Of a DNA stretch of 36,705 bases, positions 25,787 through 36,705 are shown one piece after another (the first letter of the stretch is position 1; every line of letters starts with the position of its first letter). The stretch is from a virus (Duplodnaviria; Heunggongvirae; Uroviricota; Caudoviricetes): the IMG/VR virus record IMGVR_UViG_2693429677_000015; one strand, 5' to 3'. Under the pieces are notes generated by a model. It did no database searches and was not told where the DNA came from. It saw nothing but the letters and a program-made list of their open reading frames with translations. The position numbers and the translations under genes are program-made.

Positions 25787-25808
25787 CTGACGCGCTTCGC
25801 TTGTCCAA

Positions 25809-25857
25809 CCCGGAACGGGCGCACAAAGAATTTGCGCACCCGTTCCGGGTTTTCTTA
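25809..25857 (+). terminator. Rho-independent terminator after ogr, shared with the convergent rrf2-like gene
   Basis: ~19-bp imperfect stem CCCGGAACGGGCGCACAAA / TTTGCGCACCCGTTCCGGG followed by TTTTCTT. Confidence 0.6.
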
Positions 25858-26214
25858 TTCAATGGCAGACAACTGATAATTTGTGTCTTCCTGCAGGCTG
25901 GTTAAAGAAATATTATCCAGTGCAGCCAGAATAACGTGCTGTGTATATAATCCGGAACATTTCATTGCCCGGACAATATCACCAACACTGTAATTTTCTT
26001 TTGTCGGGATATATCCACCACCCGGGCCGCGTGTGGCTTTTACCAGGCTACTTTCCCGTAAATATCTGAATATTTGCTCCAGATATGACAGTGAAACGGT
26101 TTCTTTGCTTAATTGCCGGAGTGAGATTGGCTTTCCGGTGTACTGTTTCACAAATTTAATCATTACCATAACTGCAACTGATGCACGCTGGCTTCCGGAA
26201 TTATCTTTCATCAT
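25855..26214 (-). CDS. Rrf2-family winged-helix transcriptional regulator (single Cys, probably not Fe-S binding)
   Basis: VSLSYLEQIF and LVKATRGPGGGY match the Rrf2/IscR signature; alternative ATG at 26226 overlaps the upstream stop (TAATG). Confidence 0.7.
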   Translation of the reverse strand: MMKDNSGSQRASVAVMVMIKFVKQYTGKPISLRQLSKETVSLSYLEQIFRYLRESSLVKATRGPGGGYIPTKENYSVGDIVRAMKCSGLYTQHVILAALDNISLTSLQEDTNYQLSAIE

Positions 26215-26225
26215 GATTACTTCCA

Positions 26226-26513
26226 TTAATGGCATAAATTGATGGGGCGGGTCAGTGAATAAAGAGGCAATACATTCCATCCCTTAGAGCGCCAGCTGTC
26301 TGCAACATCTTTACTTCTTGTTATCGCCGGTATTCCAATAGGATTATTTGCGTGCATCCATGCCACTGGCTCTGCTTCCAGTGATGCAAGTGCGATTTCC
26401 AGTGCGATTAACATATTGTGATCGTCTTCATCAAGACCGAACGGGATGTCTTCGCGCCACGATTTAAACTCTGTGATTTTACGTTGTAACCATTCTTTGG
26501 TAATGGTGGACAT
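26226..26513 (-). CDS. Hypothetical protein co-transcribed with parMR and the rrf2-like gene
   Basis: ATG at 26513 with AGGAG 7 nt upstream (the 26531 start of the track is GTG); 95 aa; no recognised motif. Confidence 0.4.
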   Translation of the reverse strand: MSTITKEWLQRKITEFKSWREDIPFGLDEDDHNMLIALEIALASLEAEPVAWMHANNPIGIPAITRSKDVADSWRSKGWNVLPLYSLTRPINLCH

Positions 26514-26527
26514 AGTTACTCCTGTTT

Positions 26528-26842
26528 TCACTTCGGGAAAAACGCCTGAATATTCTTTTTCACCTGCTGCATATGGGGGGCGCTGTCTGCTGCTGGTTGC
26601 GCCGGTTTTTCAGGCTGTACTGGTAGCGGTGGCATCCGTATTTCGTCTTCTGACCATTCTGCCAGCGAATACGCCAACGCGGGGGTGCGTTTTATAAGAG
26701 CTAGTCCAGCCAGAAAAGCCGCGCGTTGTGCGCGGCTGCGTTCGGAGGCTGGCAGGCTGTCGAGGTAACTGCACGCCTCCCGTTCGCTCTTGACGACGGC
26801 GGGCTTCAGATAGAAACTTATCCGTCTGGTTGGTGTCGTCAT
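26528..26842 (-). CDS. parR: ParR/StbB-type ribbon-helix-helix centromere-binding protein
   Basis: ATG at 26842 with AGGAG upstream, 5 nt from the parM stop; LDSLPASERSRAQRAAFLAGLAL parallels R1 ParR (LDSIPQGERSRLNRAALTAGLAL) as I recall it. Confidence 0.75.
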   Translation of the reverse strand: MTTPTRRISFYLKPAVVKSEREACSYLDSLPASERSRAQRAAFLAGLALIKRTPALAYSLAEWSEDEIRMPPLPVQPEKPAQPAADSAPHMQQVKKNIQAFFPK

Positions 26843-26846
26843 TGAT

Positions 26847-27806
26847 TTACTCCTTGTCCATTGCGTACAGCCCATTAACCAGAGCAAACTGTGGCACCCC
26901 GTCCGCGATGAAAGTCGCATTAACTCCGCAGGCTTCGCGGATAGCGGGTGCCACAATCTCCGCTCCTCCACCTACAACCATCACCCGCCCGTAACCCGAA
27001 AAAACCGCCAGCGCGCGGATCACGCGTTGTTTCAGTGTTTCCTCCTTTTCACGAATAACTGCCATCAGGCTGGCGTAATGCGCGTCATTGTGGATGTGCT
27101 GGCGCAGCCAGGCTTCATCGTGGCGATGTTCGATAATGGTATTGGCGATGTGGTTACTGGTGCGCATACCGTTGGTGGCCATCACCGACAGCACGGCATC
27201 GGCCATCAGAGAAACGCCTACGTGTGGATCGCAAAACACCTGGCTGATACCTGCCAGTTGCCCCTGAACCTTTGCCACATCCAGCGTGGTTCCGCCCAAA
27301 TCCACAATCAGCAGGGATTCAAACGGACTCATGTCAGCCAGTGCCTTAAAACCAGCCGGAATGGATTCAGGCATAACCCGCACGTTACGGATAGTGAATG
27401 CCTCGCCGTTCTGGTACTCCACCGGGCGCATAACGTTCGCTTTTTTGCGGTTGATGTTGGCCATGTCCGGCTGTGCGTTTGTGTCGAAATACTCGCTCAG
27501 TGGCAGGGTAACAACCACATCCACTACCTGTGGTGTGATGCCTGATTTGACCAGCGCGTGGTGAATGGCGATTACATTCACATCGCTGTACTGGTATTGC
27601 GTGTCGGTCGTCTGGACAAAGCGATCGCTAACCGGATCAAAACCATAGCGCACGCCATCAAGCATGTAGTTCGCGGGCTGCGTGCCACCGAACGGCGCAG
27701 ACCATTCCGACTTGAAGCTGTTCGGGCTGATGGCGTTGCGGCGTTCGCCGTTCTCAGTCCATGCCAGCTTGATGTTGGTGGAGCCGTCGTCGATACAAAT
27801 TTTCAT
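26847..27806 (-). CDS. parM: ParM/StbA actin-like segregation ATPase
   Basis: MKICIDDGSTNIKLAW..., DLGGTTLDV, VVGGGAEIV: actin-fold phosphate and adenosine motifs, with strong similarity to R1 ParM across the length as I recall it. Confidence 0.9.
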   Translation of the reverse strand: MKICIDDGSTNIKLAWTENGERRNAISPNSFKSEWSAPFGGTQPANYMLDGVRYGFDPVSDRFVQTTDTQYQYSDVNVIAIHHALVKSGITPQVVDVVVTLPLSEYFDTNAQPDMANINRKKANVMRPVEYQNGEAFTIRNVRVMPESIPAGFKALADMSPFESLLIVDLGGTTLDVAKVQGQLAGISQVFCDPHVGVSLMADAVLSVMATNGMRTSNHIANTIIEHRHDEAWLRQHIHNDAHYASLMAVIREKEETLKQRVIRALAVFSGYGRVMVVGGGAEIVAPAIREACGVNATFIADGVPQFALVNGLYAMDKE

Positions 27807-27835
27807 GTCGCTTTTCCTTATGTTGATTAATTAAT

Positions 27836-27951
27836 CGTTTACGGGATTTTTAAATCCCGTTTTCGCCTGTTTTGTGCGCGCTTCATATATCGCGGCGCGT
27901 TTTTTGCTCATTTACGGGATTTGTGAATCCCGTTTCTGTCTGTTTTTTGTT
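27836..27951. repeat. Two ~40-bp direct repeats, each with an ACGGGATT(T)-N2-4-AAATCCCGT dyad, upstream of parM (candidate parC centromere/operator)
   Basis: Repeat 1 at 27836-27878 (intergenic), repeat 2 at 27909-27951 (inside the last codons of gene A); 73-bp periodicity. Confidence 0.45.
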
Positions 27952-30705
27952 TCTACTGGTCAGGCCACCCCGCAGCAGGTCTGCTTTGCGGCGGGCGCGT
28001 TCAGTTGTTTCACTGATTCTCTGTGCGTGCTCTGCGTCACGGATGGCGCGCAGCATGTCAGAAAGCACGGTAACGGGGGTTTTCATGGTGTTCTGGTCCT
28101 GCTGAAGTGTGGATGCCAGACGTGCGGCGGCTTCGGGGTCTGATGCCCCCAGCTGTGCCAGATAGCTGGCGATCGGGTTATGGCGGATCTCCGTGCTGCT
28201 TACGCCGTGATTACGGCTCAGGTGCTGCCAGAGCTGCGTGATTCGGCTGTCCGGGCGGGTATCCGGTTTGCGTACAATTTCAAATCCCTGTGGTGCAATG
28301 ATGCTGCCGTCAACGTACAGGCTGCCGCCCCGTAACAGGTGCTGCATCTGCTGTTCACCGATATGCAGGCCGAGAGATTCGGCAGATTCCCGCCATTCTT
28401 TAGTGAGTAATTCGTGGTTATCAGGCAAAGGCCGTGGCTGTTTGCGGCTCTGTGTCCAGTTCTGCATTTCATCACTGCTGTTTTTTGCCTGCTTGTCACG
28501 CAGCGAACGCATCAGCGCCCGGCGTTCGTGCCGTTTCAGTGAGCGCATCCATTCGTTCACTTCAACGCCGTCAGGGAGCTGCGGCCACGGTGCTGGCCGT
28601 TCTTCCGGCTGTTCTGTCCCGTTGTTGTCCGTTTCCTGTACACGGGGACAGTTATTGCCACGAGTCCAAGGGGCGGCAGGGCCGCCCTGAAGGTCAAAAC
28701 CATTTTCGTGGGCGCTGCCTTCCTGTTCCGGTTTACGTCTTACCAGCTTCCAGTTATCCGGGTGCGTGCACACACGGGAGGATTCCCCGATGAGTGGTGA
28801 CCAGATCCCGTAAATCTGTACACTCTGTTCGCCGTAATCGTTCAGCTCATCGGCGAGGTCGTAGGCGGTGCGAATCAGGTAGTCTTTGCGTGGAACAAGT
28901 ACGCCGCCCTGTTTCTCTATGTAGGTGGCAAAACATCCGGCATCAGCGGCAGCGAGTACCGCATCCATTGCGTCATCCTTCAGCCGTTGCGGGCCTTCCG
29001 GGTTGCGTGCCATCTGGCTGGCAAGGCGGCGGAGTTCACGCCACACCTGACGGGAGGGGATGCCAAAGAACTGGAACTGGCGGACCCGGTGAAGGCGTGC
29101 CCAACCGATGGCGCGCTCCACGCTCTCGGCCATTGATTTTCCGGTTTCGTGGTCAACGCGTGGTTTGCCCGTTTTCGGGTCGATGCCATCCACGGCGCGG
29201 CTGTCCAGGTTCTTTCCGATGTAGGTCGCGATATAGCTGGTTGGTGTGCCTTTTGAGCCGTCGACATACTCCACTTTAAAGCGCGGAGTAATATCATTGC
29301 CCAGCTCGTGGCGGTCTTCCTGAATGGCAATATCGCGGGTGATGGCCACGATGCTGTCGATTTCTTCCGGATGAGCAAAGACCATCATATGCCAGTGCAC
29401 GGTGCCGTCATGGTGAGGCTCCACCGTGCGGATGCCATACCAGCGCAGGCCGTCGCGGTTCAGTTTTTTGCGGACCGCCGCAAAAAACGTGTTAACCAGG
29501 TAATCGCTGGAGTCGCGCATGGTGGCCCCGTTCCATTTGGGGTTCGGATGACCGTTCTCCGTTGTTGCGTGGTATTTTGACGGGCAGGTGACAGTCAGAA
29601 ACACCGCTCTGTCGCCACGGGCTTCGGCCAGAAGTTCCAGTCCCTTCATGGTGGCCATCATTTCTGCCTTACGGTGAACCGGGTTACTTACTCCCGCGTA
29701 ATACACTGTCTCGAGATCAATCGTGAACCCGTCTTCGTTTTCCAGCATGAAACTTTTCAGGAAATCGCGTGTTTTCTCGCGCTGTGCGCGAAACTCGCTT
29801 AACGCGTCCTGGCTCAGATAGGGCGATGTTTTTCTGGAAACCAGACAGGCGGCGCGGAGTTGTTCTTCTCTCCACTCGCAACGTAACAGCCATAGTTTGC
29901 GTTTCCACCATTCCGCACAGGTCAGGCGAAGGATTGCGCCCGGCAGCAGCTCTGTGTCCGGTTCGTTCCTCCGGTCTTTGTCTGTTGTCAGTGCGTCATA
30001 ATGTGGAGGCATGGCGTGCAGGTGTAACGCCATGCGGGCCAGCATCTGATACGCCTTCAGCGTTACATCCATGGTCAGTTCGCCATCAGTCGCGCCAAAG
30101 CCATCGCAGAGTTTTTCGAAGGTGCTGCTGAACATCGCCGCCGTCATGGTGGCCAGCGTCTGTATCTGGTGTTTGTTGAGCTGCGGCAGGTAAAGCAAAT
30201 CGTCCAGGCGTTCGCGTCCAGCAAGGGAGCGATAACCCGGTGTCAGCCAGCGGTGATCGGTGCGGTCCAGACGTTCGAATATTTTGCGCAGGGTTCCGCG
30301 TGCATAGCGTTCCGCCTGCCAGCTCTTTTTGCCTTTCCGGCGATCGGCTTCCTGTTTTTTGCGCAGGAAGGAGAGGTGGCGAATAAGCGGATCGCGCAGA
30401 TAGGACGGCAGCAGGCGCAGCGAGGCCATGGCTTCATCCACCGCGCCGCGTGCCTGTTTTCTGGCGTCTCCTGCCAGTGTGATGGTTTTGTCCTGTTTTT
30501 CCTGTGCGTCCAGGCTTTTATTAATCAGGTTGCCCAGCGGCGTGGCGGAGAACGCCGCATCAGCCATTTCCTGGCGGCGCTCGTTCTCTACCCGGTAGGC
30601 GCCCAGCCAGGAGGAAAGCGCGGATTCAGGAGCGGGGATCCCCGTTCCTTCACGCCCCACCGCGTGGCGCGGTTGTTGCCAGTCCCTGATGTACTCTGCC
30701 GTCAT
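27883..30705 (-). CDS. Replication initiation endonuclease (P2 gpA-like, rolling-circle)
   Basis: 940 aa; large early-operon protein with HxH-type motif region (GTVHWHMMVF) typical of the P2 A family; longer than P2 A (761 aa). Confidence 0.8.
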   Translation of the reverse strand: MTAEYIRDWQQPRHAVGREGTGIPAPESALSSWLGAYRVENERRQEMADAAFSATPLGNLINKSLDAQEKQDKTITLAGDARKQARGAVDEAMASLRLLPSYLRDPLIRHLSFLRKKQEADRRKGKKSWQAERYARGTLRKIFERLDRTDHRWLTPGYRSLAGRERLDDLLYLPQLNKHQIQTLATMTAAMFSSTFEKLCDGFGATDGELTMDVTLKAYQMLARMALHLHAMPPHYDALTTDKDRRNEPDTELLPGAILRLTCAEWWKRKLWLLRCEWREEQLRAACLVSRKTSPYLSQDALSEFRAQREKTRDFLKSFMLENEDGFTIDLETVYYAGVSNPVHRKAEMMATMKGLELLAEARGDRAVFLTVTCPSKYHATTENGHPNPKWNGATMRDSSDYLVNTFFAAVRKKLNRDGLRWYGIRTVEPHHDGTVHWHMMVFAHPEEIDSIVAITRDIAIQEDRHELGNDITPRFKVEYVDGSKGTPTSYIATYIGKNLDSRAVDGIDPKTGKPRVDHETGKSMAESVERAIGWARLHRVRQFQFFGIPSRQVWRELRRLASQMARNPEGPQRLKDDAMDAVLAAADAGCFATYIEKQGGVLVPRKDYLIRTAYDLADELNDYGEQSVQIYGIWSPLIGESSRVCTHPDNWKLVRRKPEQEGSAHENGFDLQGGPAAPWTRGNNCPRVQETDNNGTEQPEERPAPWPQLPDGVEVNEWMRSLKRHERRALMRSLRDKQAKNSSDEMQNWTQSRKQPRPLPDNHELLTKEWRESAESLGLHIGEQQMQHLLRGGSLYVDGSIIAPQGFEIVRKPDTRPDSRITQLWQHLSRNHGVSSTEIRHNPIASYLAQLGASDPEAAARLASTLQQDQNTMKTPVTVLSDMLRAIRDAEHAQRISETTERARRKADLLRGGLTSRNKKQTETGFTNPVNEQKTRRDI

Positions 30706-30711
30706 AGTGAT

Positions 30712-31077
30712 TTACTTCGTCATGCCATTCAGGGTGTCGCGGCAGACGGCAGCCAGCCGCTGAATTTCCAGCACGGTGTCTTCTGTGTCGGCATGGCGAT
30801 GTGTGATGCGGATGCTGTCGGCAATCACATCGACGATTGCAGAGGATGGGCGCTGGTAAATGCCAATAACGGACGGGGTGCCACCTTCAATGCGGTAAAG
30901 CCTGTAATTTCCCTCGTGGCTGTCAATCATGTAGCGGCCATCAATAACAATCTTTCCGTCAGCGAGCTGCGGTACAGGCAGGGATTTCAGGTACATGTCA
31001 TAACGGTCACGCACGCGAACGGCAAGATCACGCTCTGTGTTGAGCAGGTATTCAAGAAAGTCGTTGGCGAGAATCAT
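30712..31077 (-). CDS. Hypothetical early protein
   Basis: 121-aa ORF directly upstream of gene A. Confidence 0.4.
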   Translation of the reverse strand: MILANDFLEYLLNTERDLAVRVRDRYDMYLKSLPVPQLADGKIVIDGRYMIDSHEGNYRLYRIEGGTPSVIGIYQRPSSAIVDVIADSIRITHRHADTEDTVLEIQRLAAVCRDTLNGMTK

Positions 31078-31149
31078 TGCGGCAATCCTCTGGTTACAGA
31101 TGTGCGAAGGCCTCCCGCCGCAAGGTGCAAGAAAGGCCCGGAACAGGAA

Positions 31150-31380
31150 TTAATGGAGTTTGTTTTGCTGCTGGATGAGATCCTGAAGAGACAGGAGGTC
31201 TTCCGCCAGATAGCTGAATACAGCGGCGCAGTAGTCGGCTGAAATAGTGCTGTTGAGTCTGTGCAATGTGTTGGATTGCATGATAAAGGCGATGTGTGCG
31301 GCGCGGGTGAGTCTGCGATCGATTTCAGTCTGGATGTGACGACGCTCCGCGATAGCGCGGTGCTGTTTGCGGTTTGCCAT
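31150..31380 (-). CDS. Hypothetical early protein
   Basis: 76-aa ORF; no motif recognised. Confidence 0.3.
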   Translation of the reverse strand: MANRKQHRAIAERRHIQTEIDRRLTRAAHIAFIMQSNTLHRLNSTISADYCAAVFSYLAEDLLSLQDLIQQQNKLH

Positions 31381-31700
31381 GGTGTGGCCTCTTTGGTTGT
31401 AAGTTTTGAAAACTCACCATCCAGAGGTTCCAAGCTCGGGGTGGTGAGACGTACAGGGTTGGAACTACCGGCAACCAAAGAACCCGGCCCGACCGAAGTC
31501 GGCCCCATACGCCTCACCATAATTCGTGTGCGAAAAAGACGTGGCGATACGGTACGCACAAAAAAACCGCTGGCGCGGTTGTGCGCTTTGGTTGTCAGCG
31601 GGGTTCCAATCCCGGCACCCGTTTTATGAGGCGCAGCGGAAATGTAACCTGACTGATTGCGGCATGGCAAGCGGTTTTTTTGTGTGTGCATAGTGGTTAC

Positions 31701-35604: not shown

Positions 35605-35700
35605 GGCCAGAAAACTGGTTAGACCTGCTCTTTGTCTGGTCTGATTATTGCTGGAAAGAGGCTGGAGAAATTGTAGGGCGGTTCATTGGAGGGCTTCGCA

Positions 35701-36705
35701 ATGTCAATTAAGAAGCTCGAAGATGGTCGTTATTTGCTGGACATCAGGCCGAACGGACGCAAGGGAAAGCGCGTGCGTAAGGTATTTGACAAAAAATCGG
35801 TAGCGGTGGCCACTGAACGCTACATCATGGCGAACGCTGAAAAGCGGGAATATATACAGGGCTACCGTGATCGCCGAACGCTAAATGATTTGCTTGAGTT
35901 GTGGTGGATGTATCACGGTCAACACAGGCGTAAGGCGGAAGAAGACCGAAAACAACTGTGCAACATAATCAATGAGCTTGGCGCTGATATGCAGGCTGTG
36001 GATCTTGATAAGCTGAAAATTATCGCGTGGCGTTCTCAAAAGATAGCTGCTGGATTGAAACCGTCATCTGCTAACAGGTACATGAACCGACTATCCGGCA
36101 TGTTTACTGTTCTGAAAAGAATAGGCCTTTGGGATGCAGAACATCCGGTAAGGGGAATTTCTATTCTTTATGTATCCCCGCGAGAAATGGCTTTCCTGTC
36201 CCAGAAGGAAGTAGCGCTATTGCTCGATACACTGGAGGGCGACTACTGGCGTGTTGCGCTTTTGTGTTTAAGCACAGGGGCGCGCTGGAGTGAAGCTTGT
36301 AAGCTTCGTGGTGAACAGATAGTTCATAACCGTGTAACGTTTCTTGAAACCAAAAATGGCCGGAAGAGAACGGTGCCAATTTCACAGGCGGTTTGTGAGG
36401 CGATCAGAACCAGAGAAACAGGCAACTTGTTTGAGGTGAAGTACCGGGAATTCTGCCTAGCGCTGAAAAGGGTTAAGCCCGATTTGCCAAAAGGCCAGGC
36501 TGCGCATGTGCTGCGGCATACGTTCGCCAGCCATTTTGTGATGAACGGAGGAAACATTATTGCGCTTCAGAAGATTCTTGGCCACGCAACCATTCAGCAA
36601 ACAATGGCATATGCACATTTTGCACCGGATTACCTGCAGGATGCGGTGGCCCTTAATCCGCTGAAAGGTGGCGTGAGTGTCCACGCAGTGTCCACGGGGG
36701 ATTAA
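35701..36705 (+). CDS. int: Tyrosine recombinase / phage integrase
   Basis: ATG at 35701 with GGAGGG 7 nt upstream (the 35686 start of the track is TTG); C-terminal catalytic region ...GARWSEA...HVLRHTFASHF...ILGHATIQQTMAYAHF...; stop is the last codon of the window. Confidence 0.9.
   Translation: MSIKKLEDGRYLLDIRPNGRKGKRVRKVFDKKSVAVATERYIMANAEKREYIQGYRDRRTLNDLLELWWMYHGQHRRKAEEDRKQLCNIINELGADMQAVDLDKLKIIAWRSQKIAAGLKPSSANRYMNRLSGMFTVLKRIGLWDAEHPVRGISILYVSPREMAFLSQKEVALLLDTLEGDYWRVALLCLSTGARWSEACKLRGEQIVHNRVTFLETKNGRKRTVPISQAVCEAIRTRETGNLFEVKYREFCLALKRVKPDLPKGQAAHVLRHTFASHFVMNGGNIIALQKILGHATIQQTMAYAHFAPDYLQDAVALNPLKGGVSVHAVSTGD

Follow-up and report, generated by a model that had tools for sequence, protein, structure and literature searches.

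A two-dyad ParMRC-type cassette in integrating P88-like prophages of Escherichia coli, a candidate partition system for transient phage circles

The virus record IMGVR_UViG_2693429677_000015, a stretch of 36,705 nucleotides (nt) that we refer to as the window, belongs to a P88-like (Xuanwuvirus, P2-family/Peduoviridae) prophage of Escherichia coli; P88 and other Xuanwuvirus members are the closest phages. Downstream of its replication gene A, the prophage carries genes for a ParM-like actin ATPase and a ParR-like adaptor, which are preceded by two dyad-symmetric repeats. By analogy to characterized systems, we see about an even chance that dyads, parM, and parR work together as a type II (ParMRC-type) cassette that partitions transient replicating circular phage DNA. 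The presence of a partition system is already published and routinely annotated by the Prokaryotic Genome Annotation Pipeline (PGAP). Rousset et al. (2022; PMC9122126) analyzed the same locus, reported the partition system, and listed this exact gene arrangement, whereas our literature search turned up no study of parMR function in P88-like or P2-like phages. New here is that the cassette is a fixed, ancient module with an unusual two-dyad site and under strong selection, that the two genes following it (ORF3 and an Rrf2-like gene) are unrelated cargo, and that a plasmid lifestyle is a poor fit. The cassette consists of the following parts.

27908–27949, minus strand: distal repeat with dyad HP1 at 27914–27933 (ACGGGATTCACAAATCCCGT on the minus strand); candidate ParR site, parC-like
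27835–27876, minus strand: proximal repeat with the perfect dyad HP2 at 27841–27860 (ACGGGATTTAAAAATCCCGT); intergenic; candidate ParR site and operator
27825–27836: 12-bp perfect palindrome GATTAATTAATC, between HP2 and the ribosome-binding site of parM
26847–27806, minus strand: parM, 319-residue actin-like segregation ATPase; Shine-Dalgarno motif AAGGA at 27815–27819
26528–26842, minus strand: parR, 104-residue ribbon-helix-helix adaptor; start 4 nt past the parM stop

The phage ParM is a full-length homolog of the ParM of plasmid R1. It matches the Pfam profiles StbA_N (E = 1.4e-81; 272.6 bits, cut-off 24.6) and ParM C-terminal domain (E = 7e-69; 231.4 bits), and R1 ParM structures in the PDB are matched end to end (residues 2–316, E = 3.9e-92). 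All nucleotide-binding motifs (DDGSTNIK, MPESIPAG, DLGGTTLD, and GGGAE) are kept, with the phosphate-1, catalytic-glutamate, phosphate-2, and adenosine motifs unchanged with respect to R1 ParM. The gene is intact in all 87 collected copies, which represent 70 alleles, and its ratio of nonsynonymous to synonymous substitution rates (dN/dS) is 0.06; parM is under very strong purifying selection.

ParR falls into the same Pfam family as the plasmid ParRs (Plasmid_stab_B, PF10784; E = 1.9e-24; 85.7 bits, cut-off 25), and a profile built on phage and plasmid ParRs matches the ParR of pB171 in the PDB (2jd3) over its full length (residues 8–130, E = 1.6e-13). Both genes had been proposed in a preliminary description of the window, made from its letters alone, and the significant Pfam matches bear this out. 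The E. coli phage ParR (104 residues) is shorter than the plasmid ParRs and lacks a segment present in them; an AlphaFold2 model of the monomer (predicted local distance difference test (pLDDT) score of 55) is too poor for a fold search.

In an alignment of 21 phage ParRs, the N-terminal DNA-binding domain is near-invariant and its strand RRISFYLKP invariant, the linker (residues 66–95) is hypervariable, and the C-terminal tail is conserved as K-x-N-I-x-x-x-F-P, with Asn-97, Ile-98, Phe-102, and Pro-103 invariant. This tail aligns with the C terminus of pB171 ParR, and a K/R-x-N-x-x-x-x-F-P tail is also present in an IncL/M plasmid ParR and in the ParRs from Hafnia, Plesiomonas, and Serratia. 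In type II systems, conserved C-terminal tails of ParR bind ParM (PMC5016525). The hypervariability of the linker between an invariant strand and an invariant ParM-binding tail indicates that selection on ParR acts on adaptor function, beyond DNA binding alone. Of the 85 parR copies readable as far as a stop codon, 84 are intact. Because DNA similarity between phages stops at varying points within parR, the left recombination boundary of the adjoining hotspot is placed inside the variable ParR linker; parR seems to be the left recombination anchor of this hotspot, with both functional ends retained. The gene is mosaic, with a dN/dS of ∼0.31 as compared with 0.06 for parM.

With 83% identity, the two 42-nt direct repeats upstream of parM lie 73 bp from each other and contain one 20-bp dyad each, ACGGGATTT-NN-AAATCCCGT. 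The distal repeat is not intergenic but falls within the final ∼20 codons of gene A; the proximal dyad is located 35 nt upstream of the parM ATG. The dyad pattern matches four times in the window versus 0.06 matches expected by chance (∼70-fold), and across ∼200 related loci it is confined to these two positions upstream of parM. Similarly, 113 of the 115 exact matches in IMG/VR that are not lost at a contig end lie at most 250 nt from a parM start. The other two correspond to a terminator and a coding region, both unrelated, and lend no support to dyad-carrying satellites or plasmids that hijack the system. The pattern is not found in the A-to-cos region of P2, which lacks parMR, and no further half-sites cluster near the two dyads. 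In one related locus (L053), the 3′ region of gene A is divergent and homology resumes 14 nt upstream of the distal dyad, indicating that the repeats travel with parMR. We also rejected the dyads as a part of the gene A origin: the nick at the P2 origin lies 427 nt inside A, P2 has no such dyad, and in L053 the homology starts anew 14 nt upstream of HP1, past a divergent 3′ part of A.

The site is conserved beyond E. coli. P2-like prophages of Plesiomonas and Hafnia, whose ParMs are 62% identical, carry two dyads with the same 18-nt span (YGGGA...CCCR) at a spacing of 72–73 bp, and one Hafnia dyad shows a symmetric change from CGGG/CCCG to TGGG/CCCA. In the Serratia and Enterobacter relatives, the ParR strand is more diverged (NRKISFYL in Serratia), and other paired repeats are found that still start with YGGGAAC. 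The E. coli dyads fold into stable hairpins (−11 kcal/mol, z = −3.7) that are terminator-like on the antisense strand only, and single-arm dyad variants are wobble-compatible on opposite strands for HP1 versus HP2. In the Plesiomonas and Hafnia equivalents, however, arms, span, and spacing persist while hairpin stability is lost (z = −0.4 to −1.8), and an RNA hairpin or terminator was rejected in favor of a protein-binding site on DNA. The comparison thus favors a dyad-symmetric DNA site, as expected for ribbon-helix-helix dimers, over an RNA structure as the conserved feature.

Between HP2 and the ribosome-binding site of parM, the core ATTAATCAA of the 12-bp palindrome is kept in E. coli, Hafnia, and Plesiomonas, and a frequent variant, GGTTAATTAACC (related loci L007–L086), preserves the palindrome by a symmetric double change. 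The palindrome may be a second protein site or a weak or unusual −10 region. A Hafnia relative (L089, 5453–5956) and an Enterobacter relative (L094, 4914–5848) have one or two added genes between gpA and parM, which encode a 167-residue protein and a D12-methyltransferase-like protein plus a 71-residue protein; in the Hafnia relative, the distal dyad lies within the added open reading frame (ORF) rather than in gpA.

The order of the cassette, a cis site followed by parM and parR, is that of the ParMRC (parA/stb) systems of R1, IncF, and IncL/M plasmids and of par1 of pB171. These systems differ from the cassette in their host, a plasmid as opposed to an integrating phage, in ParM (∼50–53% identity), and in the cis site. 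Whereas R1 parC consists of ten direct ∼11-bp iterons in two blocks that flank the par promoter (PMC5016525), the phage site comprises two 20-bp dyads 73 bp apart. Next to the closest plasmid ParMs, the centromeres consist of AT-rich ∼10-bp direct iterons, which are also unlike the phage dyads. The ∼40-bp direct repeats with dyads that the preliminary description had noted are real, but the resemblance to a parC centromere that it saw in them does not extend to the organization of R1 parC.

Judged from the comparison of sequences, dyads and parMR are an old resident module of a P2-like phage clade, not a recent plasmid acquisition. A synteny comparison with P2-like relatives finds the order gpA, parM, parR, cargo, (ogr), portal, and terminase again in prophages of Hafnia, Plesiomonas, Serratia, and Enterobacter, and the GC content of parMR (54–57%) is the same as that of gene A and the phage core. 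Among plasmid ParMs, identity is at least 95% in six records and then falls directly to 53% or less, with no intermediates. Across 50,697 phage records, this ParM family is found only in P88-like phages and in D6, a P1-like plasmid prophage with 47.8% identity in ParM; D6 is a plasmid prophage of 91 kb, whereas the P88-like phages are ∼35 kb in size and integrate. In a rough neighbor-joining tree, the phage ParMs form two deep groups separate from the plasmid clades, which would be compatible with either one or two acquisitions.

The distribution of the cassette bears directly on the lifestyle of its host. Of 5426 complete E. coli genomes, 1303 carry parM; 1441 of its places are chromosomal and 2 are on plasmids, and ∼10% of the carrier genomes have two or three copies. 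Both the preliminary description and Rousset et al. suggested a phage-plasmid, which would persist over many generations as a low-copy plasmid with parMRC as its maintenance system. This suggestion draws on a partition cassette that is complete and under selection, on the 48% identical ParM of the known plasmid prophage D6, and on the PLSDB record NZ_CP148288.1 (L002), which is labeled a plasmid but holds, in a circle of 34,461 bp, an entire P2-like phage with parMR. Its genes include int, C, cox, gpA, and parMR, a hok/gef gene, and a Com/methyltransferase pair; assembly may have caught a phage upon excision or replication, or the record may represent a real episome. However, its integrase type occurs 311 times on chromosomes and never on plasmids, and int, C, and cox are retained in all relatives examined. 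The large-plasmid match that we examined, in the 228-kb IncC KPC plasmid NZ_MK439959.1 (L217, 39750–58000), is a P2-like prophage fragment truncated by IS26 on the int side; the other four plasmid records with at least 95% ParM identity are replicons of 272 kb to 1.4 Mb. The fragment in NZ_MK439959.1 spans early genes, gpA, parMR, and capsid and lysis genes. No theta-type plasmid replicon was seen in the phage, whose gene A encodes a rolling-circle endonuclease. In addition, the DNA-binding domain of ParR and the dyads are near-invariant across E. coli lineages even though ∼10% of the carriers are multi-copy, which is unlike co-resident episomes that compete by incompatibility. With 1441 chromosomal versus 2 plasmid places, the host element is almost always integrated, and a stable phage-plasmid lifestyle is not supported by the distribution; we regard it as a most improbable explanation.

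For partition of transient circles, we infer the following mechanism. ParR dimers would bind both dyads, which at a distance of 73 bp (∼seven helical turns) would lie on the same face of the DNA, via the invariant ribbon-helix-helix strand. The C-terminal tail of ParR would then capture ParM filaments, and these would push apart replicated circular phage genomes. The cassette would act in a transient extrachromosomal phase, either after infection and before integration or after excision, and would not maintain the prophage as a plasmid. The pay-off could be that more daughter cells inherit the phage or are lysogenized by it, or that fewer excisions are abortive.

Two precedents support the partition reading. 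The first is srpMRC of the SXT/R391 integrative and conjugative elements (ICEs), a ParMRC whose action is limited to the excised, transient form of the element; this replicating form was shown to be stabilized by srpMRC, and the locus is strictly conserved throughout the element family (PMC4489591). Like the phage cassette, srpMRC belongs to an element that is normally integrated and pairs a ParM-type ATPase with a small adaptor, with repeats located upstream. However, SrpM and SrpR are distant from R1 ParMR and SrpR has no recognizable domain, whereas the phage proteins are clear members of the R1 family, and control of expression by SetCD as well as function were tested in the ICE, whereas the phage cassette is known from sequence. 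The second precedent is AlpAC/alpS of the integrated prophage CGP3 of Corynebacterium glutamicum, which links circular phage DNA to actin-like filaments (PMC4446434). The actin-like protein of CGP3 and its adaptor are likewise prophage products from one transcript, and the adaptor binds sites upstream of their operon (PMC4446434, PMC5539076). AlpC, however, belongs to another actin-like subfamily in a Gram-positive host, and what has been shown for it is a role in efficient replication after induction rather than in partition.

The example of AlpAC also suggests that ParMR might be a lytic-cycle organizer, which would position or spread replicating circles for replication or packaging and have no part in inheritance by daughter cells. 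In CGP3, the actin-like protein and the adaptor binding upstream of its own operon are induced early and needed for efficient replication, and in the window parMR adjoins replication gene A in the same direction. P2 replicates to, and packages from, monomeric circles, and such circles would be discrete objects that a ParMRC could move. Conversely, R1-type ParMRC drives paired centromeres apart in a bipolar manner, no replication role is known for this subfamily, and three quarters of the P2-like phages replicate without the cassette. The sequence data do not separate a lytic organizer from partition; we consider the organizer unlikely.

Several observations weigh against partition. Two dyads, as compared with the ten iterons of R1 parC, may be too few for a ring-like segrosome, and the sites may be mainly an operator. 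A natural variant (L030; IMG/VR 2657245439_000011, at ∼3934) even has a single dyad left after deletion of the 73-bp unit between the repeats; its parM and parR are intact, and its gene A has a slightly altered C terminus (…KKQTKTGFKNPVTD, followed by the stop). About three quarters of the E. coli P2-like phages have no cassette (PMC9122126), and the P2 life cycle can therefore do without it. The strand of the cassette also carries, directly downstream of it, several cargo genes for which no promoter is obvious; if their expression is required in lysogens, parMR would be expressed there as well, and a model of expression only upon induction fits less well. Finally, the promoter and terminator scans are weak, with counts not above those from shuffles. 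The scan of the minus strand between A and parM found no terminator-like site, and upstream of parM there is no strong σ70 match and no site that passes the promoter scan; a weak TTTAAA-17-ATTAAT arrangement that overlaps HP2 is seen by eye only. parMR is co-directional with gene A, 76 nt downstream of it, and orf91 of P2 occupies the equivalent co-directional position after A. We propose from this layout that the cassette may form the distal end of the gene A replication transcription unit.

The surroundings of the cassette comprise the following features.

35686–36705: integrase, tyrosine type, at the window end
27883–30705, minus strand: gene A (replication endonuclease, Phage_GPA), upstream neighbor of parM; stop codon at 27883–27885, HP1 in its 3′ end
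26226–26513, minus strand: ORF3, 95 residues; PHROG 660/60; assigned to the hotspot cargo
25855–26214, minus strand: Rrf2-like gene, 119-residue mini winged-helix protein; assigned to the hotspot cargo
25808–25850: long GC-rich hairpin between the Rrf2-like gene (minus strand) and ogr (plus strand); terminator-like site at 25838–25850 (plus strand)
Plus strand, convergent to the Rrf2-like gene: ogr, portal, and terminase genes

Gene A, parM, parR, ORF3, and the Rrf2-like gene form a dense minus-strand series in one direction that ends at the long hairpin. The gaps at the junctions are 4 nt (parM–parR), 14 nt (parR–ORF3), and 11 nt (ORF3–Rrf2-like gene) with the best-supported start codons, which were chosen from PGAP calls (parR and ORF3), a 119-residue NCBI cluster (Rrf2-like gene), and Shine-Dalgarno motifs. 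The stop/start overlaps that the preliminary description reported at each junction arise only with the longest mechanical ORFs or with a 141-residue PGAP call. Its placement of the genes in the accessory region next to gene A of an integrase-bearing P2-family prophage, in contrast, agrees with our analysis, as this is the gpA–gpQ region. An annotated chromosomal prophage is 99% identical to the window over 26.7 kb and contains P2-type capsid, scaffold, terminase, portal, ogr, gpA, and Cox genes, and the last base of the window belongs to the stop codon of the tyrosine integrase.

An Rfam scan found no RNA family within 25855–27951. In the early region, at 31437–31634 on the minus strand, adjacent matches above the Rfam gathering score are found for C4 antisense RNA (84 bits) and the Hfq-binding RNA isrK (67 bits), in or beside an “ash family” ORF (31074–31691). 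The C4 RNA of P1/P7 controls an antirepressor, and by analogy a comparable immunity circuit may be present in this P2-like phage.

The parMR region occupies the same locus as the gpA–gpQ hotspot of P2-like phages (orf91/tin/old in P2; PMC9122126). Whereas Rousset et al. listed partition genes as one of the systems of the hotspot, parMR appears here as a fixed module with its own cis sites that borders the variable part. Nor are the four genes, which the preliminary description had treated as one operon, a single functional unit. The GC content of ORF3 and the Rrf2-like gene is 40–43% as compared with 54–57% for parMR, and the pair is present in 8 of 85 related loci (∼10%), indicating that both are swappable cargo of the hotspot outside the par system. 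In a larger set, neither ORF3 nor the Rrf2-like gene is found without the other (11 of 11 loci).

The region after parR shows >50 gene arrangements in the 85 loci. PADLOC matches in the hotspot of relatives include AbiLi/AbiLii, IetA, and RmrA (e.g. L027/L070, L009/L043, and L020), and other contents are an Ead/Ea22-like protein, a ClpX-zinc-finger protein, and DUF4760. The hotspot of L046 encodes a 128-residue protein with an HVO_A0114/MarR-like winged helix-turn-helix; in L006 and L075, the DUF4760 protein is paired with a 280-residue membrane protein.

This neighborhood suggests that the cassette might itself be an exclusion or incompatibility weapon, with the ParR and ParM of the prophage disturbing how incoming plasmids, or related phages that superinfect, are partitioned. 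R1 parC reportedly expresses incompatibility, to go by the title of work by Dam and Gerdes from 1994, and the tail motif that the phage ParR has in common with plasmid ParRs makes cross-talk with plasmid ParM filaments conceivable. The cassette also borders a hotspot with anti-phage systems (AbiL, IetA, and RmrA; PMC9122126). However, PADLOC gave zero defense matches on the four proteins, the AT-rich direct iterons beside the closest plasmid ParMs are unrelated to the dyads, and ParM is only ∼50–53% identical to plasmid ParMs, with no intermediates on plasmids. In addition, the defense genes of the hotspot turn over, whereas the cassette keeps its place and is conserved from genus to genus. 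We therefore judge an exclusion function to be quite improbable.

The proximity of the cargo also allows for a regulatory relic, in which ParR and the dyads would be kept mainly as an autoregulated promoter/operator or as an insulator for the cargo in lysogens and ParM would have no role in segregation. Many cargo genes closely follow parR on the same strand, in the window at a distance of 14 nt with no promoter-like site in between. The proximal dyad lies 35 nt from the parM start beside the conserved ATTAATCAA box, where bound ParR could control transcription into parM, and two sites alone are operator-like. A mere promoter cassette would not be expected, however, to keep parM intact in 87 of 87 copies at a dN/dS of 0.06, or to keep the ParM-binding tail of ParR invariant while the linker varies. 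Moreover, many cargo sets are on the opposite strand and hence have their own promoters. Such a relic is highly improbable in our estimate.

With its 95 residues, ORF3 is on the short side for its family, a large group of modular prophage proteins (713 representative clusters). In longer relatives, its N-terminal ∼55-residue module is fused to a DUF551 or a dATP/dGTP pyrophosphohydrolase domain (Pfam). The structure model of ORF3 (pLDDT 61) is too poor for a fold search. The module (…WLQRKI…EDIPFGLDE.DHNMLIAL.IAL.SLEA.PVAW) recurs on proteins of 49–383 residues (e.g. cargo cluster c3 and L074), and one protein of 3192 residues has nine stretches that match it.

The Rrf2-like protein is a near-orphan. 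The preliminary description had called it an Rrf2-type regulator, which applies to its N-terminal winged helix-turn-helix: the Pfam Rrf2 profile is matched with 50.7 bits (gathering score 30), covering only this part (profile positions 2–85 of 132), whereas the NCBIfam profile rrf2_super (53.3) stays under its cut-off of 73.3. Like IscR/Rrf2 regulators, the protein keeps SLSYLEQ and RGPGGGY in this domain. In contrast to these regulators, it comprises 119 rather than ∼165–180 residues and lacks most of the dimerization helix as well as the ∼26-residue segment that holds the three cysteine ligands in IscR-type relatives; one cysteine is left. The sole non-trivial homolog (51% identity, 104 residues) is found in L093 (Logan SRR27258098_1054, 2044–2358). 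It lies in a lambdoid-type replication/nin-like gene row by an IstB/DnaC-like gene and DUF977, with no ORF3 homolog nearby.

Taken together with the partition reading, a bolder picture can be drawn, in which P2-like prophages are “integrative but partitioned” and pass through a regulated episomal phase in which circles replicated by gene A are segregated by the two-dyad ParMRC. The picture would extend to approximately a quarter of the E. coli P2-like prophages and to their relatives in Hafnia, Plesiomonas, Serratia, and Enterobacter; we put it forward tentatively, as possible but rather doubtful. If true, both daughters of an infected or excising cell would keep the phage, a classic family of integrating phages would have a hidden carrier or plasmid-like stage, and its centromere, with two dyads seven helical turns apart, would be unlike any characterized parC.

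The value of the cassette lies in a testable question rather than in its discovery. A plasmid-type segregation machine under strong purifying selection is present in about one-fourth of the complete E. coli genomes, inside integrating prophages. If a transient episome is partitioned, the distinction between integrating element and plasmid would be blurred by P2-like phages as it is by the SXT/R391 ICEs, and models of lysogenization and prophage loss in the P2-like family would need an extra step. The two-dyad site would then also be a natural minimal centromere for asking how few ParR sites suffice for a ParM system.

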